Origin: an uncultured Verrucomicrobiae bacterium
Lineage (GTDB): Bacteria; Verrucomicrobiota; Verrucomicrobiia; Limisphaerales; Palsa-1400
Reading direction: 5' to 3'
DNA length: 64,000 bases
Assembly (NCBI GenBank): GCA_963707025.1
Contig: CAVPOM010000014.1
Coordinates: forward strand, 1 to 64,000
Shown here: one piece after another, positions 1-44,557 of the stretch
How the letters are laid out: every line of letters begins with the position of its first letter
How positions within the stretch are numbered: position 1 is the first letter of the stretch
Translations under genes and position numbers: made by a program
Notes under the pieces: generated by a model
Seen by the model: the letters and a program-made list of their open reading frames with translations, nothing else
What the model was told of the DNA's origin: nothing
Database searches by the model: none

Positions 1-13
1 CCCCTCTCCGCCA
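1..13 (+). tRNA. 3' end of a tRNA, probably tRNA-Ser (rest lies outside the window); forms attL of the island
   Basis: Window begins CCCCTCTCCGCCA, i.e. acceptor strand CCTCTCC, discriminator G and CCA, typical of tRNA-Ser. Only 13 nt are visible. Confidence 0.6.
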
Positions 14-1501
14 GTTTGAGATTTCGGGATTTTCGCCGCAAGCGGCGATGTTTGACAGCGAGGCGGAATTGAATTCCGCCACGATTTTCCAAGGGTTTTT
101 CAACTCGACCGACAACCGTTTCTCCGCCAACTGAAAGTTCGAACCGATTTTTCTGAGAAAATCGCGCTTTTTCTCCGGGTTTCCTTCCGCGAGCAAAATA
201 GTGGCGTCTTTAGCCTCCTTTACGAACGCAATAGCCGGTTCGAACCGATTGCGGCGGTTGTCTTCAAACGCTGCCAAACTGCCCTTCAATTCGGCCTTGC
301 GGTTGAGCAGGATGTGTTTCTTTGAAACATACTCCTGCTCCCCGATCTGCTCGGAGAGGCGCATATCGAGGAGAATATCTATCTTCTTCTCGCATTGCGC
401 CAAGTCCGCCTTCGTCCGCTCAATGGCCGCTGCCTGTGCCGTGGCGGCCTCTTGCCGCGTCTTTTCAAGTTCGGCCACCATCAAATCGGCAATGGCGGCT
501 TCCAGGGCCACCTTGCCGATTTCCCGGTCAACCTGCTCGGCGATGGTTTCCTCCCGCACGTATCTTTGCGTGCAGGCGGAAACCCGCTTGGTGCAGCGGA
601 GATAGTTGTGGCCTTTTTGGGTCTCGGTCGTGATGAAACAGCCGCACTCGCCGCATGTGAAGACCCCGCGATACAGATACGGCTTCAAGGTGCTCGTTTT
701 GGGCTTGCTCTTCCGCTCCATGACCGCCTGGACCTCGTCAAACAGGCGCTTGGAAATGATGGGGTCGTGCTTGCCCTCGTAAAGCTCGCCGTTAAAAAAC
801 ATCAGGCCGCAGAAAAAAGGATTCTTGAACGTGTGCTGGAAATTGGATGTGGACATGATCTTGTCGCTGCATGAAAGAAGACCGAGCCCGTTTATCCTCC
901 GGCGCACTTCATGCAGGGGATATTGGCCGGTCGCATACAACTCGAACGCCTTGCGGACAAGCGGGGCCTTCCTGGGGTCAACCACGATTGACCGGGTGTT
1001 GCGGTCGTTCACGTATCCGACCGGCGGGCGGTTCGGCCAAATGCCGTTCCTGAGTTTTTGGCGCAGACCCCGGCGGATGTTCTCGGAGAGATTGTCCACG
1101 TAGTATTTGCTCTGACAAAAGGCGATATTCAGCATGAATTTGCCGTGCGCCGTCGCCTCAAAATGGAACGTGGGGAAGCGCAAGTCCTGGATTTTGCCGA
1201 TGTCCACCAGATACACGATTCTGCCACCGTCAACGCTGTTCCGGGCCAGCCGGTCGGGGTGCCACGCGAGAATCCCCTGGGCCTTGCCTTTTTCAATCTC
1301 GGCGAGCATCAAATTGAATTGCGGCCGCCCTGGGCTTTTGGCCGTGCGGCTCTCCTCGAAGACCTTGAGCACGGTCAAACCCTCGCGTTTGGCGTATTCG
1401 TGCAACTCGAAAAGCTGCGCCTGAATCGAGAGAATCTGCCGGTCGCTCTCGTCGGTGGATTTGCGGACATATATGAAAAATGGTTTGGATTGCGTTGTCA
1501 T
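1..1501 (-). CDS. Large serine recombinase/integrase (resolvase, recombinase, Zn-ribbon and coiled-coil domains); 3' end runs off the window into the antisense of the tRNA
   Basis: Translated by hand (absent from the ORF track because there is no stop in the window): MTTQSKPFFIYVRKSTDESDRQILSIQAQ...PGRPQF...DRLARN...CGECGC...YLRC...ISNWRRG. Catalytic YxRxS and DRLAR motifs are present. Confidence 0.95.
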   Translation of the reverse strand, partial: MTTQSKPFFIYVRKSTDESDRQILSIQAQLFELHEYAKREGLTVLKVFEESRTAKSPGRPQFNLMLAEIEKGKAQGILAWHPDRLARNSVDGGRIVYLVDIGKIQDLRFPTFHFEATAHGKFMLNIAFCQSKYYVDNLSENIRRGLRQKLRNGIWPNRPPVGYVNDRNTRSIVVDPRKAPLVRKAFELYATGQYPLHEVRRRINGLGLLSCSDKIMSTSNFQHTFKNPFFCGLMFFNGELYEGKHDPIISKRLFDEVQAVMERKSKPKTSTLKPYLYRGVFTCGECGCFITTETQKGHNYLRCTKRVSACTQRYVREETIAEQVDREIGKVALEAAIADLMVAELEKTRQEAATAQAAAIERTKADLAQCEKKIDILLDMRLSEQIGEQEYVSKKHILLNRKAELKGSLAAFEDNRRNRFEPAIAFVKEAKDATILLAEGNPEKKRDFLRKIGSNFQLAEKRLSVELKNPWKIVAEFNSASLSNIAACGENPEISNWRRG

Positions 1502-1535
1502 AGAAATATCATATCACCAATACATGAGCGGTCAA
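1502..1535 (-). promoter_or_regulatory. Sigma70-like, probably leaderless promoter of the integrase
   Basis: Minus strand reads TTGACC-N16-TATGAT-N6-ATG, with TG one base upstream of the -10 (extended -10). An inverted repeat ATCACCAA (1513-1520) / TTGGTGAT (1543-1550) overlaps it. Confidence 0.6.
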
Positions 1536-1629
1536 GAAACTTTTGGTGATTCATGTGATTTCCCTAAAATGCCGTGTCGCGTCCATGAAATACTTGAACT
1601 TTCGAAAGGTAACGGATATGGTTTGCGAT

Positions 1630-2829
1630 ATGCCAAACGGAGCAATAGCGACATCGGCAAAGTGCTCGATTCGAGTTTTTGTGAGTCATGCGGAAAGCGA
1701 TGGTGATCTCGTGGATTCATTTGTGGAACTCCTCCGTTCTGCGATGGACATACGCCATGAAGAAATTCGCTGCACCAGCGTAGATGGCTATCGGCTTCCG
1801 ACCGGCACAGAAATTGACCCTCAATTGAGAGATGAAATCGTGGGCGCGAAGGTATTTGCCGCGCTTTTGACGCCCACAAGCCTTCAATCAGAATATGTCT
1901 GGTTTGAGTTGGGGGCACGATGGGGCCACGGGGCAAGCCTCCTGTCGTTGCTGGCAATGGGCGCAGAACCATCCTCGTTATGCGGTCCACTGAAAGGATT
2001 CGCAGCTAGAAAATCAGCGTCAGGGGAGATATACCAATTCCTTGGTGACGTTGCGCGTGAATTGGGTCTGCAATTGCACGATCCCCATGTATATCAAAAG
2101 CAATTTAAAGTTTTTGAGGCAGCGGCCAATCCCGACGTAGCTACACATAAAAGGAGCAATGCAGCTTTGTCCGACTATACGGCACGCGACATCTGTTTGG
2201 AACTTCGAGAAGCTCCTCCGTTAGAAAGAACGATGCGGGCAAAGCGATTCATCGGGTGCCATGTTGACTGGGATGTCCATTTTCGGAATGCGCACTTGGA
2301 AAAGGAGATGAACCCGACGGTTTCAGCTTCATTCATACCCTGGGAGGACGAGGGATTTGATACCGCAATCGAGTGCGATCTCAATTTAAAATTATACCCC
2401 GAGTTGAAAACAGCAAACGAGGGTGCGCTCTTCCGACTAACAGGTTACATCGAATCGGCCACAGATTGGATCATCAAATTGGTTTCTGTAAAACTATTTC
2501 CAATCAAGGACATTGGAGGAACACGAGTCCGATGCTTGCTTCAAGCGGTTTCGCGCGAATTGGGGGACCCGCTTTGTAACTCCGTTTCTAATCGGGCGAT
2601 TGAAGCAAGCATTCGAGCGCAATTAAATAGCGGCAGAGTCGAAGGCCTAACACTCACTGATGACAAGACTATACATCCGAGGATTGATCCTAAATCAAAG
2701 CACTACAAACTTTTGGTGCTAAAAACATGTAAGCATCTTATCGAGTCAAATCCCGCTGTCGCCCAAAATGTGAGCGCCAAATTGGCTTCGCTAGAAATTG
2801 AGATATACAATTTGGATAATTACGATTGA
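1630..2829 (+). CDS. TIR-domain protein with a possible central OB-fold-like region and an unknown C-terminus (candidate defence protein)
   Basis: IRVFVSHAESD...LLTPTSLQSEYVWFELGARWG is a TIR_2-like motif with the catalytic Glu. The ATG at 1630 is preferred over the TTG at 1543. Confidence 0.8.
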   Translation: MPNGAIATSAKCSIRVFVSHAESDGDLVDSFVELLRSAMDIRHEEIRCTSVDGYRLPTGTEIDPQLRDEIVGAKVFAALLTPTSLQSEYVWFELGARWGHGASLLSLLAMGAEPSSLCGPLKGFAARKSASGEIYQFLGDVARELGLQLHDPHVYQKQFKVFEAAANPDVATHKRSNAALSDYTARDICLELREAPPLERTMRAKRFIGCHVDWDVHFRNAHLEKEMNPTVSASFIPWEDEGFDTAIECDLNLKLYPELKTANEGALFRLTGYIESATDWIIKLVSVKLFPIKDIGGTRVRCLLQAVSRELGDPLCNSVSNRAIEASIRAQLNSGRVEGLTLTDDKTIHPRIDPKSKHYKLLVLKTCKHLIESNPAVAQNVSAKLASLEIEIYNLDNYD

Positions 2830-2871
2830 ACTCGAAAGCATAATGCCCAATGTGGAATGATTGGTTCAGCA

Positions 2872-3045
2872 TTATCTTGACCTTTTCCGCCGTGCTAGGA
2901 CTGCGTCCCGTGCGATTTGTGAACGGCGTTCAGGGGACAGCTTCGCTGCCCGCGCCCTGCCGCCTTTCAAACCACCCAGCCTTCCCAGGGCCACCGCTGC
3001 CGGATTTTTCCCCTTAACCGTTTTCTTTGATGATTTTTTAGGCAT
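2872..3045 (-). CDS. Small basic protein of the KNPAAVALGRLGGLKGG family
   Basis: MPKKSSKKTVKGKNPAAVALGRLGGLKGGRARAAKLSPERRSQIAR; I recall this motif from mobile-element-associated small proteins. Confidence 0.7.
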   Translation of the reverse strand: MPKKSSKKTVKGKNPAAVALGRLGGLKGGRARAAKLSPERRSQIARDAVLARRKRSR

Positions 3046-3147
3046 GACTGAATGCTGCCATTGTACCACGGGATTGCGAGCGGAAATTATTGGTCAAAAC
3101 TATGTGTGACAGCCGGTGAGGCTGACGAATATGTGAATATAAACGTG

Positions 3148-3544
3148 CTTTCAGTTGGCGGAGAAACGGTTGTCGGTCGAGTTGAAAAACCCTTGGAAAA
3201 TCGTGGCGGAATTCAATTCCGCCTCGCTGTCAAACATCGCCGCTTGCGGCGAAAATCCCGAAATCTCAAACTGGCGGTGTCTTTTAATCAAAGTTCGACA
3301 ATTCTTTGATCAAAATCCCGCTGTGTAGGGTATCCCCACACCTATCCCCGCAGCGGGGATACCCCCTGCTGGCGCAAACCCCTTGCTGAACAAGGGTTTT
3401 GTCGGTGTTCGGTCGTCTGGCGACCCTCCCGACTTCGGTCGGTTTACGCCTGCTCACGCAGGCTTCGGCTGCGCGCGGCCTCGGAGGCCGTGCTCGCCGA
3501 AAACCTCCCTCATCGCTCACGCGAAACACGGGTTCACCGACGGA
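3148..3544 (-). repeat. Internal inverted copy of the island's attP junction (397 bp)
   Basis: 3148-3277 is the reverse complement of 8-137 (130 bp) and 3272-3544 is the reverse complement of 5555-5827 (273 bp). The two overlap at the TGGCGG core. I saw no mismatches by eye. Confidence 0.95.
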
Positions 3545-3667
3545 ACTGTTAAGAATTTGGTGTCAACAATGCTTCTTCTATACATCCGCCATGCGGCGGA
3601 TGAATGCGTTTTCCGATCAACACCCCCTTTGGAAGTTTGTGCAGGGACATAATATACTTGTCAGCAA

Positions 3668-3925
3668 ATGCTTAGGGCAATTCGTAAAAATGATGGTGAG
3701 ACGGTGGAGGCGTGGAGCCAGAGAGAATCCTCCGGGCCTTTTGCGTGTCCCTGCTGTGGGGGCGAAGTCATCCTGCGCGGCGGGAGACGCCGCCTTGACC
3801 ATTTCGCGCATGTGGCGGAAATGAAATGCCCGCATGACCTCGGCGAAAGCGAGAATCACCGCCGCTGCAAGGCGGAGATTTGGGTCTGTCTTGCGGATGC
3901 CCCGCATGATAATCGAAGCCTTTGA
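3668..3925 (+). pseudogene. Truncated CoiA-like protein (N-terminal Zn-binding part only)
   Basis: FACPCCGGEVILRGG...HFAH...GESENH motif; ends after 85 aa with no nuclease domain. Confidence 0.65.
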
Positions 3926-4126
3926 CTATTCGGCCTCGGCGGGGAAGCTGCCTTTTCGGCGGCTTTTTCCGTCTCGGATGACCTGCGTGCCTTTCTGGCC
4001 GGCTTTGATGCCGTTGCGGTAGCTCTCCAAGACTTTCTCGGAAACCCAGCGGACGATGTCCTCGCCGGTTTCGCTGCTTGTGAGCTTTCGGGCAAGCTCT
4101 TGCTCGAATTCGCTGATGTAGCTCAT
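3926..4126 (-). CDS. Small hypothetical protein (66 aa)
   Basis: MSYISEFEQELARKLTSSETGEDIVRWVSEKVLESYRNGIKAGQKG; helical, protein-like composition; lies downstream of a long hairpin. Confidence 0.7.
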   Translation of the reverse strand: MSYISEFEQELARKLTSSETGEDIVRWVSEKVLESYRNGIKAGQKGTQVIRDGKSRRKGSFPAEAE

Positions 4127-4175
4127 GTGAGTTTGATGTTGGCTGATAATGCTCGACCGTGCGTGGCGGCCCGGA

Positions 4176-4309
4176 GCCGCCTCGCCCTCTCGGAATGGCC
4201 GTCCGAAGTCAAGGCGTAGTTCGAGCGCGGTGGAACGACTTCGACCGGGGAGCGAAGCGGGGGCTGGAACGACCTTGACCGGACGGTACAATGAAGAGAG
4301 GGCGGCGGC
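4176..4309 (-). promoter_or_regulatory. Long imperfect hairpin resembling an Frpo/ssi-type single-stranded-DNA promoter
   Basis: Nested arms: GCCGCCTCGCCCTCTC / GAGAGGGCGGCGGC and CCGTCCG-AA-GTCAAGG / CCTTGAC-CGGACGG. A TTGAC (-35-like) motif lies inside the stem. Confidence 0.5.
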
Positions 4310-4425
4310 GAACGTGCCTGGAAAGGGGGGGCGGCCAGGGGAGTATGAGGCTTTTGTGGATTTGAACGCTTGCATTCTTGCGGTTTGCGGATACCCTGCT
4401 TCGGGTTTGGCGTATTCTCGCGCAC

Positions 4426-5010
4426 ATGAATCCTGAGCGCTTCATCTACATAGATGCTCCCGGTATTGCGTCCCTCTATGCCCAGATCAACGGGCAAGAC
4501 GTGGTTGAGACACTTCTCACTATGGAGGACAGTAGGACTTCAGGTTGGAAGATGGCTTTGAGCGCTTTCCTCGGAGGTTCGGGCGAGTCGAACAAAGCGA
4601 TCAAGGAGGTGAAAGCCACAAAGATTCTCCTGAGGCCAGAAAATATGGTCCGTGAAATTGTAATGAATCTGCGCGCCGTCGGCACCCTCCATTTCTCAGT
4701 CGCGGATGCAATCGCGAGGACATCCAGCACGCACGAGCCTGCGTGGTTCGAGGCGCGACATCCTTTCTCGGTGCCGCCGCAGTTAGACCAGTTCGAGAAG
4801 ATGGGCGCGGTTGTTTTCGTCTCCAGTTCGCAGATTTCTATGTGGGCGAGCATTCATAATTTTCCGACCGCGCAGGGTGGGCAGATACCAATTCACGATG
4901 TTGAGCTTTTCCGCCGACTGGCAGGTCGCCCCTGTTCGTATTTGGTATTCGGGTCTATTTATTCAAACGGCGATGGATTCCAAGTTAAGCCTTTTGCCAT
5001 CCATCTTTAG
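4426..5010 (+). CDS. Hypothetical protein (N-terminus loosely DUF6414-like)
   Basis: MNPERFIYIDAPGIASLYAQING; 194-aa ORF with TATTCT 7 nt upstream of the ATG. Confidence 0.65.
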   Translation: MNPERFIYIDAPGIASLYAQINGQDVVETLLTMEDSRTSGWKMALSAFLGGSGESNKAIKEVKATKILLRPENMVREIVMNLRAVGTLHFSVADAIARTSSTHEPAWFEARHPFSVPPQLDQFEKMGAVVFVSSSQISMWASIHNFPTAQGGQIPIHDVELFRRLAGRPCSYLVFGSIYSNGDGFQVKPFAIHL

Positions 5011-5133
5011 TGTTACACCCGCCGGTACAAGCGCAACCACTCCGTTAGCCGTTCGCCTTGCATAAGCCCGTCCGAGGGCGGGAGGTGAGTGGCGGCACAC
5101 CTGCCGGCAGTGTCCGCCCGCCAGAAGTCAAAA

Positions 5134-5468
5134 GCCGGCCAAAGTCTTCGGGTTTTGAGACGGAGGGCGCCGGGATAGGGGTGCGCCCGTAGGCCAAAAG
5201 CTCGCAAGTCTTTGGATCGGCAACCCGTTGAAACCCGTCTCCCAAAACCCGTGTCAACGCCTGCCGCAGTCTCCGATGTTGTGAATCGGAAGGCGCCGGG
5301 GGCAAGGGGGTGTGCCTGGAGCAAACAAGCTCGGAGTCTGCGGCAGGACGTGTTTCCCCGCGACAAAGTCTTGGGATGCTGTGAGCCGGAAGGGGGTCCC
5401 GACGAACGGGTTAAAAGGGGGTGAGGAGGGACTTCGCACGGCGAACAAGCTCTCAAGTCTTTGGCGCT
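5134..5468. ncRNA. Candidate structured ncRNA or ssDNA element: three tandem long hairpins with a shared motif
   Basis: Modules at about 5134-5221, 5258-5350 and 5359-5467. Each reads AGTCT...TGANNCGGARGG...AAGCTC..AGTCT, with different but complementary stems. No credible ORF in the region. Confidence 0.55.
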
Positions 5469-5554
5469 CCCGCGATAGCGGGTCCCATACCCGTTTAACC
5501 TGTTCAAACCCGTGTTCACCCAAAAGGACAATGATGTCCTTTATCGTAAACCCG

Positions 5555-5827
5555 TCCGTCGGTGAACCCGTGTTTCGCGTGAGCGATGAGGGAGGTTTTC
5601 GGCGAGCACGGCCTCCGAGGCCGCGCGCAGCCGAAGCCTGCGTGAGCAGGCGTAAACCGACCGAAGTCGGGAGGGTCGCCAGACGACCGAACACCGACAA
5701 AACCCTTGTTCAGCAAGGGGTTTGCGCCAGCAGGGGGTATCCCCGCTGCGGGGATAGGTGTGGGGATACCCTACACAGCGGGATTTTGATCAAAGAATTG
5801 TCGAACTTTGATTAAAAGACACCGCCA
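5555..5827 (+). repeat. Right arm/attR of the island, hairpin-rich, duplicated in inverted orientation at 3272-3544
   Basis: Direct sequence comparison; ends AAAAGACA-CCGCCA, followed by host sequence ACCCTGCC. Confidence 0.9.
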
Positions 5828-5845
5828 ACCCTGCCGCCGCCCTGT

Positions 5846-42599: not shown

Positions 42600-44557
42600 G
42601 TAGAGTAGGCGAAGTGGAAGGAGGCGGATTGAACTGACCGCAGTTGTCAGTCTCGCGCTGCCACTTCGCCCCTCATCGAACCGAACGGACGGATTTCCCA
42701 TATTCGGCTCTCCGAACTCATTCATCGGGCCGCCTTCCACTTCGCCGTGGTCGGCAGTTCATAGAGTCCATAACGCTGGTGCAACTGCTCGGGAACGTAG
42801 TGTTCCCACAGGCTGCGGCGGCAACCGTGTTTGCGCCACAGCCAGCGCCGAAAGCGGTTTTGGCTGTAGTGTTTCATCCGGTTCATCACCGAGACGCTGT
42901 TGCCGTAGTGGAAGTAGCCCGCCCATCCGCGCAAGACTTGGTTGACCTCTTTGACCACCTCCTGTATCGGACGCCCCTGCGTCCAGTGGTTGAGGATGCC
43001 GCCCAGTTTCTCGCGCAGGGCCCCCCGGCTTTTCTGGCTGGGTTGAACGTGCAGGTAGCCGCGCCCTCCAAAGGACTTGCGCCAGGTCAGGTTGAAGCCC
43101 AGGAAGTTGATCCCTTCCTTGCGAATGTTCACAATTCGGGTTTTGACTTCGTTGAGGGTCAGCCCTTTGGCTCGAAGCCATTTCTTGAGCCGCGCTATCA
43201 GCCCTCCGCCGCACCCCGCCGCGCACGCGATGACAAAGTCATCGGCGTAGCGCACCATGCGGGCTTGGCCGGAGGTTTTCTCGTTCACCCCGTGATCCAG
43301 CGGGTTGAGGTAGAGGTTGGCCAGCAGCGGCGAGATGACCCCGCCTTGCGGCGTGCCGCGCCGGTTGGGGATCACTCGCTTGGTGCCGTCCTGGTCTTCC
43401 TCCGCGACCGGGGCGCGCAGCCAGCTCTTGAGGAGCCGCAGCACGCTGCCGTCGCTGACCCGCCGGGCCACGGCCTTCATCAGTTCCCGGTGCGGAATCG
43501 TGTCGAAATATTTCGTCAGGTCCGCGTCGATGATTTCCACGTAGCCTTGCTGCACTGCTTGTTGGATTTCCGCAATGGCTTGGTGTGCCCGGCGTTTGGG
43601 CCGAAAGCCGTAGGAGCGCGGATGAAAGTCCGCCTCCAAGATCGGCATCAGCACCAGATACACCGCCGTTTGCACCACCCGGTCCTTGACCGTCGGGATG
43701 CCCAACGGCCGTTCCCCTCCGCTGCTCTTGGGAATCATCACCCGCCGCACCGGGCTGGCCCGATACGTCTTGGCTTTGAGTTCTGCTTGCAGGCGGTCGA
43801 GCCATTGCTGGCGCAGGGCCGGGTCGGCGGTGATGGACTCCATACTCTGTCCGTCCACTCCCGCGGCCCCGCCGTTGCGCTGTTGCGCTGCCAAGGCGGT
43901 TTCGAGCACGTCCTTGCGCAGCAATTCCCCATACAGGCTCCAGAACCGATACTTCGGCTCTGCTTTGGCTTTCCGATAGAGCGCGATTTGAAGCTGCCGA
44001 ACTTTCTCCGGGGTTGCTATCCGGGTCGCCCCGGCCATCCCCGCATCCTTCGCTTCGCCTCCACGCATTGAGCAAGTGTTCCCCCTTTGCGTTCGCTCGC
44101 GCAACTCCCGGCGGAAATCCGCCTGGAGCGCAAACAAGTCCACGCTACTATGAGGAACTCCGACTTCTCCGGCAGGGCCGCTCGCCTGACTGGTCTTGCC
44201 AGCTTGCGCGGGCGGTTGGGCTGGCCGCCCGCCGCCGGAGTTCTCCCAGCTTACCTTGGTTGAACTTCCAGACGTGCCGTCCACGCCGACCCCGCCGGAG
44301 CGTTGAGAAGGCTCTGACTGTTGCCCTGCCTCCTCCCTGCGGCCTTCGCCGGTCAAACAGCGGCTCGGCTTGTCTCCGGTTCTAAACTTATCGAGGCTCA
44401 TTGGATGTGGTTCATTTTCATTACGGCCCGTCTGTTCATCTCCCTCAGCTTCCAACCCCGCCTCGCGGCGGCGCTGTTGAGGTCGTGTTCCGTCGTGAAC
44501 AGCCTAATTCGACGGGCGGGACTTTCACCCGCGTTCCAACCAACTTCACTGGCGCAA
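42600..44557 (-). mobile_element. Group II intron, apparently full length
   Basis: 5' end TTGCGCC; domain V GAGAGCCGAATATGGGAAATCCGTCCGTTCGGTTCGATGAGGGG; domain VI ending CTACTCTAC; internal RT ORF; EBS1/IBS1 complementarity. Confidence 0.92.
42722..44038 (-). CDS. ltrA: Group II intron reverse transcriptase/maturase (no endonuclease domain)
   Basis: RPLGIPTVKDR, GTPQGGVISPLLAN, RYADDF, FLGF and LRGWAGYF motifs. Confidence 0.95.
   Translation of the reverse strand: MAGATRIATPEKVRQLQIALYRKAKAEPKYRFWSLYGELLRKDVLETALAAQQRNGGAAGVDGQSMESITADPALRQQWLDRLQAELKAKTYRASPVRRVMIPKSSGGERPLGIPTVKDRVVQTAVYLVLMPILEADFHPRSYGFRPKRRAHQAIAEIQQAVQQGYVEIIDADLTKYFDTIPHRELMKAVARRVSDGSVLRLLKSWLRAPVAEEDQDGTKRVIPNRRGTPQGGVISPLLANLYLNPLDHGVNEKTSGQARMVRYADDFVIACAAGCGGGLIARLKKWLRAKGLTLNEVKTRIVNIRKEGINFLGFNLTWRKSFGGRGYLHVQPSQKSRGALREKLGGILNHWTQGRPIQEVVKEVNQVLRGWAGYFHYGNSVSVMNRMKHYSQNRFRRWLWRKHGCRRSLWEHYVPEQLHQRYGLYELPTTAKWKAAR

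Follow-up and report, generated by a model that had tools for sequence, protein, structure and literature searches.

Genomic context of the hairpin modules

The window, by which we mean the whole stretch of 64,000 nucleotides that was analysed, opens with a large serine recombinase gene and continues with cargo genes and with a non-coding block that carries three long hairpin modules and ends at host DNA (Table 1). The CoiA-like genes that are full length at related loci carry the Pfam domains CoiA_N and CoiA_nuc. The nearest Atlas clusters of orf67 are hypothetical proteins of Verrucomicrobiota, and homologues of orf194 were also located 5' of the first hairpin, H0, in G004/L046, L066, L077 and L086.

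Table 1 Features at the island end in the window. RNA fold z-scores are relative to 200 shuffles per module; R1 is the covariance model built from the modules.
Feature	Position	Strand	Evidence and remarks
Large serine recombinase gene, cut by contig start	2..1501	-	Pfam Resolvase, Recombinase and Zn_ribbon_recom; 95% identical to L082 recombinase
TIR-domain protein (defence-type cargo)	1543..2829	+	Pfam TIR_2; PADLOC spbK/ThsB-like
Inverted, 100% identical copy of 5555-5827 (last 273 nt of block)	3272..3544	-	Adjoins recombinase module
CoiA-like N-terminal fragment, 85 aa	3668..3925	+	tblastn to full-length CoiA-like genes of L065/L072/L078 and L084
orf67, small conserved island protein	3926..4129	- (opposite to array)	Homologues with 63-75% identity at 10 loci
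orf194, cargo gene directly upstream of H0	4426..5010	+	ORF; Atlas lead DUF6414/DUF7019-like
H0, G+C-rich 5' hairpin opening the block	5063..5133	+	Homology between loci begins at (A)AACCCGTC; aligned in 8 units from 7 loci; blastn
Module A (first hairpin of the original prediction)	5134..5220	+	RNA fold z = -3.5; R1 78 bits
A-B spacer	5221..5258	+	Three direct AACCCGT motifs; kept at loci holding module A
Module B (second hairpin)	5259..5347	+	RNA fold z = -6.3; R1 87 bits
Module C (third hairpin)	5358..5468	+	RNA fold z = -5.4; R1 81 bits; module kept beside core at other loci
Tail hairpin, GCGCTCCCGC-GATA-GCGGG	5464..5484	+	Nearly invariant at 16 loci
AAC region	5485..5554	+	Further AACCCGT-type motifs and AAAGGACA/TGTCCTTT hairpin
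Core	5521..5775	+	Invariant blocks with small hairpins between; ends in GGTGTGGGGATACCC; kept across class
att-proximal arm	5776..5827	+	T-arm-like hairpin ending ...CACCGCCA; island homology stops, then host DNA

The original prediction had pointed to the neighbourhood of homologous integrases as a place to look for the motif, and large serine recombinases were indeed found near the block at seven loci (the window, L082, L080, L042, L098, L102 and G268). The recombinases are 31-36% identical, as against 70-95% for the block. The layout agrees with that of islands bounded on one side by a tmRNA or tRNA gene and on the other by a copy of that gene's 3' end, with the recombinase beside attL. The tmRNA gene is on the same strand and 3.7 kb upstream of the block in L070, 2.5 kb upstream of the core in G268 and 24 kb upstream in G250; in G221, G174 and G235 the tmRNA gene and the core are on different contigs, and in L082 the 3' end of the recombinase gene overlaps a tRNA-Ser. 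Since the contig starts inside the recombinase gene, the target gene of the island in the window is not visible; the tmRNA gene of this genome sits on contig C4. The 2.8-kb element beside the tmRNA gene in G268 contains only a recombinase, an HTH protein, an inverted att copy and the block. In these islands of the tmRNA-gene type, with their defence cargo and large serine recombinase, the block makes up the attR-side end.

A VirD4/TraD-like coupling protein was present in L064, L065 and L070, and many island ORFs had no family assignment. For proteins without a family, NCBIfam, as well as PDB sequence searches with three island proteins, gave no relaxase or RNA-binding identification. In L086, a unit of H0, one module and tail lies between co-directional genes, directly upstream of a gene for a protein with a DUF3631 domain, which we take to be linked to primases, and in G014 such a unit lies directly upstream of a HigA-like gene.

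The modules are an optional extension of a conserved block

The three hairpins had been described as a self-contained array. Comparisons between loci showed that they are the front part of something larger, an optional 5' extension of a conserved non-coding block of roughly 770 bases, which runs from H0 through the modules, the tail hairpin and the AACCCGT repeats to a core of ~300 nt ending ...CACC(A/G)CCA. Upstream of H0 the sequences are unrelated between loci, except for the 3' end of orf194, which is common to the window and L046. Wherever the island end was present, the modules were followed by the tail, the AACCCGT repeats and the core up to the island/host junction, and a full module adjoined the tail in 15 of the 16 distinct loci that hold the tail with the AAC region/core. 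What is conserved across the class is the core, not the modules: core matches were found in 18 of 401 class genomes, and most of these were matches to the core only.

The AACCCGT motif occurs about nine times, always in a single orientation. In distant relatives the tail hairpin has the loop GTAA (GUAA as RNA) on an unchanged stem. The core includes a small invariant hairpin, TCCCC-N-GGGGA, followed by GGTGTGG, a heptamer that is presumably also part of the F-plasmid nick region, and across the class its invariant blocks alternate with hairpins of variable length. The hairpin before the CCGACCGAAGTCGG hairpin has a GUGA or GCGA loop and compensatory stems (CCUGC/GCAGG, CCCGC/GCGGG and CCGC/GCGG). 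A closing helix between GGUGAACCC and GGGGAUACC is proposed. At distant loci the att-proximal arm ends ...GCACCACCA, and in G268 and L070 a terminator-like hairpin lies 3' of the arm, which we infer to be the tmRNA gene's own terminator. The inverted copy of the block end that stands beside the recombinase module in the window was also found there in L084, G268 and G250.

Of 31 genomes from the same family, 7 contained the hairpin modules, which were also found on 25 metagenome contigs. A covariance model, R1, built from 12 modules, matched 61 modules at E <= 1e-5, of which 41 were distinct (in the window, at seven loci in the genomes of six relatives and at 23 of the 25 metagenome loci); since homologous modules recur elsewhere, the repeat of hairpins is more than chance. 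The modules fall into three types, A, B and C, with one to three modules per array and an order that is invariably A-B-C and was inherited as a unit at seven distinct loci. Truncation at the 5' end of the array is common and such shortened arrays persist, which suggests that A, B and H0 are dispensable. Each genome holds one to four copies, confined to one island family. The genome of the window (6.96 Mb) contains the three modules and one partial arm on contig C16, and nothing more; partial or solitary copies away from the core were also seen in G014 (C53 and C43), G019 (C4) and G005.

Pairing is conserved on one strand

In the window, the six arms originally reported (5139-5148/5206-5215, 5260-5276/5331-5347 and 5364-5376/5451-5463) were exact, AGTCT faced AGTCT in all three modules, and the common motifs were present on the left (TGANNCGGARGG) and on the right (GCNAA(C)AAGCTC). 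The modules are 85-110 nt long, about 65% alike and separated by gaps of 38 and 10 nt. Their termini resemble one another, forming imperfect palindromes CCAAAGTCTT...AAGTCTTTGG with variable centres of 20-50 nt and G-rich apical loops, and the internal-loop motifs are kept between the types despite diverged stems.

As RNA, the + strand of modules A, B and C folded better than shuffled sequences (Table 1), with energies of -41.8, -56.5 and -51.9 kcal/mol. The fold was weaker for RNA of the - strand (z = -1.3, -5.6 and -2.8), and folding as DNA gave z = -3.0, -5.2 and -2.6. Across the modules, pairing was kept in 89.8% of 735 stem cells, compared with 82.2% in shuffles and 22-58% with slid partners, and changes on both sides of a pair were found in 63 stem cells, compared with 22.4 in shuffles. 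Double changes occurred in 8 of 18 stem pairs when all types were pooled, most of them separating paralogous types, and compensatory pairs within a type were few (A, 0/18; B, 2/18; C, 2/18). As worded, the proposal of covarying stems was not supported, the covariation amounting to few independent events that are mostly differences between paralogous module types. The modules have the conserved secondary structure with compensatory changes that is expected of a structured RNA gene, with most of the changes separating paralog types. One-sided, pair-breaking changes were present within every module type. The central T.T mismatch, regarded in the original prediction as conserved, is frequent (31 of 41 distinct modules) and not obligatory, being replaced by G/T in 5, T/A in 3, A/T in 1 and T/C in 1.

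Wobbles in the stems were strongly asymmetric, with 88 G.T and 12 A.C, which indicates that the + strand is the folding strand. At five stem positions, one or more of the module types had G.U as the most frequent pair. Model scores were 55-95 bits on the + strand, except in L045 (36.9) and L063 (34.3), and 22-24 bits on the opposite strand. The pairing and wobble counts support that pairing has been conserved on one strand.

Comparison with known motifs

The motif had been called unrecognised, and searches agreed: there was no Rfam match over the array at gathering score, no match in plasmid and phage collections, and no genome-wide repeat pattern, while modules with kept pairing recur at other loci. 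Neither outcome that had been named as refuting the original prediction was thus observed. With Rfam 15 at gathering score, the whole window gave one tRNA and two group II introns, all elsewhere, and 14 related loci gave only a tmRNA and two tRNAs, all outside the block. Six matches at E <= 10 between 4700 and 6100 scored 14-18 bits against gathering scores of 36-100, which is chance level, and included, for example, miRNA precursors. Tandem hairpins are represented in Rfam by motifs such as STAXI. A pattern scan of 185,579 species genomes for the left and right internal-loop motifs gave 29 matches, which we regard as chance because none has AGTCT arms, and a search of viral contigs for the tail-junction pattern gave 0 matches.

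Several known kinds of element were considered and rejected. Type III antitoxin arrays of the ToxI kind consist of near-identical tandem repeats, each about 36 nt long, and stand immediately before the gene for an endoribonuclease toxin; the modules here are 85-110 nt long and about 65% alike, they are followed by a non-coding core and host DNA and no gene, and PADLOC found no ToxN/AbiE-type match among 19 ORFs scanned. Integron attC sites, 60-140 nt long, are also imperfect palindromes that fold on a single strand 3' of cargo genes, and they share with the modules an internal loop, a conserved base left unpaired and a variable apex. Unlike attC, the modules stand head to tail without cassettes, RYYYAAC/GTTRRRY boxes are absent from their ends, and only serine recombinases and no tyrosine IntI were seen among the ORFs scanned. 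REP, BIME and ERIC elements are likewise strand-specific imperfect palindromes of 35-130 nt, of few types with linkers and often located after genes, but they number tens to hundreds per genome, whereas the modules number one to four, belong to one island family, keep a fixed order and are joined to a conserved core.

The T-arm-like hairpin and the CCA-like end recall a divergent tmRNA- or tRNA-like gene; this was rejected because neither Rfam nor ARAGORN found such a gene over the block and an acceptor stem formed with the 3' end could draw on no more than four bases near the 5' side of the core. A promoter in a hairpin, as in Frpo, is improbable, no -35/-10-like hexamers with usable spacing having been seen in either arm, although promoter rules in this host may differ. 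The GGA expected of a CsrA-type sponge is present in the conserved CGGARGG, yet in a stem or internal-loop context.

Transcription and possible functions of the block

The hairpin block is a solid new non-coding motif. Its working form is likely a folded single strand, and most probably RNA. Metatranscriptome contigs in 4 of 4 runs, with 85-99% likeness, cover parts of 5211-5787, and one contig of 259 nt runs from module B through C, the tail and the AAC region into the core; this evidence is weak, coming from assembled contigs without strand in runs chosen for containing the stretch, and DNA carry-over is possible. Their depth over the block was not above that over a neighbouring PEMT-like gene. 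The segment 4374-5187, which includes H0 and module A, had no metatranscriptome cover and is not conserved in the relatives in those runs. The nearest upstream genes are co-directional with the block in the window, L064, L070, L075, L086 and L087. No conserved promoter was found 5' of the block, homology beginning exactly at H0, and a search of 5000-5830 gave no promoter-like site, with the proviso that host promoter rules may differ. No intrinsic + strand terminator was found inside the block, where the one conserved hairpin that resembles a terminator and has a U tract belongs to the - strand (5719-5703).

The best explanation, which we propose tentatively, is that the block, made of paralogous modules and a core, is specific to the + strand, likely transcribed and likely acting as a structured RNA. 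Because no conserved promoter precedes the block, its + strand would probably be transcribed by read-through from the co-directional cargo genes. The RNA would fold as a row of long hairpins. One protein, or the transcribing polymerase, would bind it repeatedly, at the conserved internal loops (UGAG-N-CGGARGG opposite AAMAAGCUC) and at AACCCGU linkers that stay single-stranded. Such binding would govern the fate of island transcripts that cross att, by insulation, anti-termination or stabilisation, and the modules would supply further copies of the binding unit, with the core as the essential part of the RNA. The specific roles of insulator, anti-terminator or protein sponge are candidates, as are the protein-binding array, the processed small RNAs, the decoy and the packaging or transfer signal of the original prediction. 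The pairing, the + strand wobble bias, the better + strand fold, the GUGA, GCGA and GUAA loops, the hints of transcription and the persistence of the block in the minimal G268 element speak for an RNA. The missing promoter and + strand terminator, the non-enriched contigs, the few covariation events, the dispensable A, B and H0, and the G-rich apical loops, unusual for stable RNAs, speak against it. The assignment to RNA is tentative.

The main rival is a single-stranded DNA signal, which would fit the strand-specific structure and would need no promoter. The excised island would be nicked and then transferred or replicated as the + strand, with modules acting as redundant origin or priming signals of the sso, ssi or Frpo type and a core holding an oriT-like hairpin and nick region. 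The position at the end of a mobile element is consistent with such a role, as are the redundant and variable copy number, the unit upstream of the DUF3631 protein in L086, and the core hairpin with its following heptamer. Several loci carry genes for the VirD4/TraD-like coupling protein, RadC and CoiA-like proteins, and these backbone genes are oriented such that the + strand would serve as their template. A parallel in structure is sso1 of ICEBs1, described as having three predicted stem-loops, as orientation-specific and as redundant with another region (PMC4595007). As with sso1 and the sso of rolling-circle plasmids, the block is a non-coding, orientation- and strand-specific and apparently redundant part of a mobile element with several stem-loops in which stem changes are tolerated if pairing is kept (PMC4595007). 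No sequence similarity to them was found, and the stems here are much longer (about 30 pairs) and rich in G.T. A role on single-stranded DNA is a candidate one. An element with a single-stranded stage would be expected to encode a relaxase or rolling-circle Rep; scans of ORFs with Pfam or NCBIfam gave neither domain, but many ORFs have no family assignment. The coupling protein is missing from the minimal G268 element, and a search with the L064 protein found no homologue in the window's own genome, which is 88% complete. Conserved G.T pairs weaken DNA stems, the DNA z-scores are weaker than the RNA z-scores, no promoter-like hexamers were seen in the stems or predicted in the array, and 72,556 plasmid records gave no match. 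We consider this reading less probable than an RNA.

The constant position at the att junction, the recombinases at seven loci, the inverted copies of the block end and the one-way AACCCGT repeats could also reflect a double-stranded att region, in which palindromes and repeats bind the recombinase, a directionality factor or an island protein and shape integration, excision or inversion. The excess of G.T over A.C would be meaningless for duplex DNA, however, palindromes of 85-110 bp with variable centres are atypical of dimer sites, an att site of ~50 bp is enough for large serine recombinases, and the block is far better conserved than the recombinases beside it, all of which make this reading improbable. 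Equally improbable are palindromic repeats of a MITE-, REP- or ERIC-like kind, selfish or in decay, that have gathered at the island end and at most stabilise upstream mRNA. Their imperfect palindromes with similar termini, the partial and solitary copies away from the core, the one-sided changes and the 5' truncations would fit, but the low copy number within one island family, the fixed order inherited together at seven loci and the internal-loop motifs conserved across diverged stems would not, and no target-site duplications were visible around the modules in the window.

A variant of the structured RNA would make it the partner of large serine recombinases that target tmRNA genes, gating or joining in recombination or target choice, or a mimic of the tmRNA 3' end that engages a host factor. 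It draws on the recombinases differing by about 65% in protein sequence while the RNA stays 70-95% identical. The RNA would be encoded right beside att and would have a T-arm-like hairpin and ...CACCACCA as its end. IS110 recombinases, which use bridge RNAs, offer a comparison. We regard this variant as very improbable.

Relation to other mobile elements

Structured non-coding elements borne by mobile elements, such as GOLLD, ROOL, HEARO/omega RNAs, bridge RNAs, sso and Frpo signals, form a small but growing class. The block is a useful object among them, being sharply delimited, conserved across a class of (probably) Verrucomicrobiota, tied to the att end of defence islands, and modular, with one to three hairpins and a constant core. 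As an RNA, it would make a new family for curation and could offer a handle on transcription control across the joint or on recombination. As a single-stranded DNA signal, it would be the first one described in the phylum, and it would mean that islands apparently devoid of a relaxase go through a single-stranded stage. In both cases the block is of practical use as a marker for island ends in metagenomes.

Tn916, which uses a tyrosine recombinase, is comparable by description. Its terminator T1 and antiterminator canT are cis-acting RNA elements that control read-through at ICE ends (PMC11658703). Like these, the block is an orientation-specific non-coding element near one end that is proposed to act on transcripts crossing the joint (PMC11658703); unlike in Tn916, no termination or antitermination was seen here, and the host belongs to another phylum.

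The islands themselves resemble the ssrA-GIs of Dehalococcoides, tmRNA-gene islands with a large serine recombinase beside attL (PMC3146451). Shared features are a recombinase on the reverse strand adjoining a tmRNA or tRNA gene (here in G268 and L082), a copy of the target's 3' end at the far end, and a small and variable size with cargo and signs of accretion (PMC3146451). The main text of that article, in which 'hairpin' and 'non-coding' have no occurrence, describes no structured non-coding block on the attR side (PMC3146451). In the islands studied here, by contrast, the far end consists of a conserved block of ~300-770 nt, with an inverted partial copy of it inside the island.

The hairpin array is a modular extension of a conserved non-coding element

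The three imperfect palindromes of the original prediction, here modules A, B and C, lie at exactly the coordinates proposed for them, with AGTCT opposite AGTCT in every module and with the shared internal motifs TGANNCGGARGG on the left and GCNAA(C)AAGCTC on the right. Each module was predicted to fold into one long hairpin, with + strand RNA folding energies of -41.8, -56.5 and -51.9 kcal/mol for A, B and C and z-scores of -3.5, -6.3 and -5.4 relative to 200 dinucleotide-shuffled sequences. DNA parameters gave z-scores of -3.0, -5.2 and -2.6, and the - strand folded more poorly than the + strand in all three modules under both parameter sets. The T.T mismatch within AGTCT/AGTCT, present in all three modules of the window, did not hold as an invariant feature: among 41 distinct modules the central position was T/T in 31, G/T in 5, T/A in 3, A/T in 1 and T/C in 1, and T.T is therefore favoured, not required. 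The motif had been called unrecognised, and Rfam 15 indeed gave no match for the array and no curated family that explains it. At the gathering score, the whole window matched only one tRNA and two group II intron pieces, all elsewhere, and at E <= 10 the region gave six matches of 14-18 bits, which is chance level.

The array proved not to be self-contained. Homology between loci starts exactly at H0, a G+C-rich hairpin whose 5' edge reads (A)AACCCGTC, and in eight aligned units the sequence upstream of H0 was unrelated, except for units that share a preceding cargo gene. The tail hairpin is followed by more AACCCGT motifs and a AAAGGACA/TGTCCTTT hairpin, and then by a core of invariant blocks with small hairpins between them. 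Class-wide BLAST found block matches in 18 of 401 genomes; beyond the window's family these covered the core alone, with module C additionally kept only in two genomes (G007 and G235). In the distant loci the conserved unit extends via a T-arm-like hairpin to ...GCACCACCA, where similarity ends. Since the distant loci keep the core part, the modules are an addition, specific to one family, at the 5' side of a conserved ~300-nt core, and another family carries a different 5' extension, a G-rich hairpin with a U tract plus a GAACCCG/CGGGTTC hairpin. The array is genuine; a better description of it is a modular add-on to a larger non-coding element that is conserved class-wide and lies at the att end of defence islands with a serine recombinase.

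AACCCGT and close variants occur in about nine copies, all in one orientation, between and after the hairpins; a protein may bind them, or they may pair with the G-rich loops. In the window, module C carries the exact complement of AACCCGT, ACGGGTT, within its apical loop, and in some distant relatives the motif itself sits in a GAACCCG/CGGGTTC hairpin. The invariant TGTCCTTTATCGT may form a local hairpin with AAAGGACA or pair with the invariant downstream GAGCGATGAGGGAGG (12 pairs, 4 of them G.U); these predicted pairings, which show no covariation, can form only as mutually exclusive structures.

Positions in the window of the block, the adjoining island and further features
Feature	Position	Strand	Remark
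Recombinase gene	2-1501	-	cut by contig start
Inverted copy	3272-3544		100% identical to the block's last 273 nt
Copy of terminator-like hairpin	3380-3396	+
H0	5063-5133
Modules A, B and C	5134-5468	+
AACCCGT-type copies	about 5065; 5222-5255; 5490-5575		first at 5' edge of H0
ACGGGTT within apical loop of module C	5405-5411
Tail hairpin	5464-5484		after module C; almost invariant
TGTCCTTTATCGT	5540-5552
Block copy of inverted repeat	5555-5827
GAGCGATGAGGGAGG	5577-5594
Terminator-like hairpin	5703-5719	-	CCCTTG-CTGAA-CAAGGG, then TTTTGTCGG
GGTGTGGGGATACCC	5775		end of core blocks
...CACCGCCA	5827		counterpart of distant-locus end
Group II intron RNA domains	42600-44525	-	Rfam RF02005, RF00029; far from array

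Recurrence and module types

The only full modules in the window's own genome were the three described here. One partial copy was found on another contig, a solitary left arm of module B (G000 C16:177494-177533, or 1501-1540 of locus L003; 85% identical), which sits directly past a gene's stop codon and is without a matching right arm. BLAST of 41 relatives found homologous stretches in eight genomes, including the window's own, all from one family. A covariance model, a check proposed with the original prediction and here built from 12 modules, detected modules in 7 of 31 genomes of this family, where they were patchily distributed (4 of 10 genera). A search pattern spanning the last module's junction with the following hairpin matched 25 metagenome contigs and no viral contig. 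Across 33 sources (the window, seven loci of six relatives' genomes and 25 metagenome loci), the model found 61 modules at E <= 1e-5, of which 41 were distinct, in 31 sources, so that homologues keeping the motif do exist elsewhere. All three types, A, B and C, correspond to the three hairpins first predicted, and their order never varies. Seven distinct arrays were A-B-C, six B-C and three C only; a further three had the 5' hairpin and one A-like or hybrid module, and two were partial.

Covariation and strand

Of 735 stem cells in the alignment fitted to the model, 89.8% were pairing, against 82.2 +/- 0.7% in shuffles, pairing fell to 22-58% when the 3' partners were slid by 1-3 columns, and both sides had changed in 63 cells against 22.4 in shuffles, figures that lean towards structure because the alignment was fitted to it and the sequences are related. 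With all module types pooled, 8 of 18 pairs showed both-side changes. Within types, compensatory pairs numbered 0 of 18 in A (10 modules), 2 of 18 in B (14) and 2 of 18 in C (17), and the sole well-populated change was U-A to C-G in four B modules. The predicted covariation of the stems is therefore real but amounts to few events, about five or six, mostly old between-type (paralog) differences.

The strand signal was clearer than the covariation signal. Stem wobbles were G.T in 88 cases and A.C in 12, and at five positions G.T made up the majority in one or more module types, A.C at none. The covariance model scored 55-95 bits for all + strand matches except two, and 22-24 bits at most on the opposite strand.

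The block lies at the end of tmRNA-gene islands

In locus L070, 3.7 kb separate an intact tmRNA gene from B-C-tail-core, which lies on the strand of the tmRNA gene and has a terminator-like hairpin after it. This interval contains a truncated VirD4-like gene, a GNAT/ASCH gene, a homologue of the window's 67-aa orf67 and one further ORF. In genome G268, CCTCCACCA forms the end of the tmRNA gene. After it come the 3' end of a reverse-strand large serine recombinase gene, an HTH gene and an inverted copy of the core's last ~70 nt, this copy being joined to the island's left-end flank; the block lies 2.5 kb from the tmRNA gene and ends in GGCACCACCA, followed by a terminator-like hairpin. In G250 core and tmRNA gene share a strand, the core 24 kb downstream, and an inverted partial copy lies 2.3 kb from the core; in G221, G174 and G235 core and tmRNA gene are on separate contigs. 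The window has the same layout: after the recombinase gene come a TIR gene and the inverted copy, then cargo over 2 kb, the + strand block and finally host genes, among them a PEMT-like gene and one for a CCA-adding enzyme.

Recurrence near homologous integrases, where the original prediction had proposed to search, was borne out by large serine recombinases that lie no more than 2 kb from either the block or its copy; they were found in the window, L082, L080, L042/G021, L098, L102 and G268. The L082 protein is 95% identical to the window's, and the L080 and L042 proteins share only 31-36% identity with it, while the block is 70-95% identical. Cargo from backbone to block includes PD-Lambda-5, AbiJ-like, TIR/ThsB-like and DUF6941 proteins, and these are therefore defence islands. 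The cargo at L074 650-3108 is the PD-Lambda-5 pair A and B, B being a D12 methyltransferase. At L092 (G021:C12) 998-5096, a tandem pair of large serine recombinase genes adjoins the block, with an HTH transposase-like ORF and a ParE-type toxin gene in the vicinity. The nearest Atlas clusters of orf67 come from Verrucomicrobiota taxa; judged only from these, the carrier host is probably a member of Verrucomicrobiota.

The general island design is already known from Dehalococcoides, whose tmRNA-gene island has a reverse-strand serine recombinase beside attL and shows signs of accretion; in the main text of that paper 'hairpin' and 'non-coding' have 0 occurrences each (PMC3146451).

A perfect 273-bp inverted repeat encloses a 2,010-bp segment that contains a CoiA-like fragment, orf67, the cargo gene orf194 and the hairpin array, and its left copy adjoins the recombinase module. 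Inverted internal copies of the island's own att junction were also found in L084, G268 and G250, so that the layout characterises the family and does not stem from misassembly. The enclosed segment may invert. The - strand terminator-like hairpin and its U-rich tail are conserved across the class, and this predicted hairpin may halt transcription that runs into the island from host DNA.

RNA or single-stranded DNA

We tentatively read the block as a + strand RNA, at a little less than an even chance. This reading is favoured by the many conserved G.U pairs, by GUGA/GCGA-loop hairpins with compensatory stem changes, by a GUAA tail hairpin loop in distant relatives and by the riboswitch-like alternation of invariant blocks with variable hairpins. 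The cargo genes directly upstream are co-directional in six loci. Contigs from all four of four metatranscriptome runs cover parts of 5211-5787, one of 259 nt spanning modules B and C, tail and core, although these contigs are unstranded, their depth is not above that of the neighbouring gene and the runs were selected for containing the stretch. Against it, no conserved promoter was found upstream of H0 in the eight aligned units, and the block is without a + strand terminator, having instead the conserved hairpin and U tract on the - strand. A single-stranded DNA signal, the main rival, which we consider less likely, would fit the location at a mobile element's end, the VirD4/TraD-like gene in three loci, the redundancy of the modules and a + strand that would serve as template for the backbone genes, and it has a precedent in the orientation-specific single-strand origin of ICEBs1 with its three stem-loops (PMC4595007). 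However, none of the scanned ORFs held a relaxase or Rep domain, the query used found no coupling protein in the window's genome, the minimal element of G268 is without one, the modules fold more weakly as DNA, and no match was found among plasmids. That the block consists of duplex protein-binding sites is improbable, and functionless palindromic repeats seem equally so.

If the block acts as a + strand RNA, its transcription would run from the cargo side in the direction of att, with the transcript folding into H0, its one to three modules, the tail and the core. The internal loops common to the module types and the AACCCGU linkers may then be repeated contact sites for one factor, which would set the fate of transcripts exiting the island, through insulation, through anti-termination where the excised circle is joined, or by stabilising the 3' ends of cargo mRNAs. 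The nearest described logic for such exit-transcript control is the terminator and canT pair of Tn916 (PMC11658703). The 2.8-kb element of G268 consists of the core, a recombinase and an HTH gene and otherwise nothing, and the persistence of the core there leaves room for a bolder reading, that the RNA would serve recombination itself.
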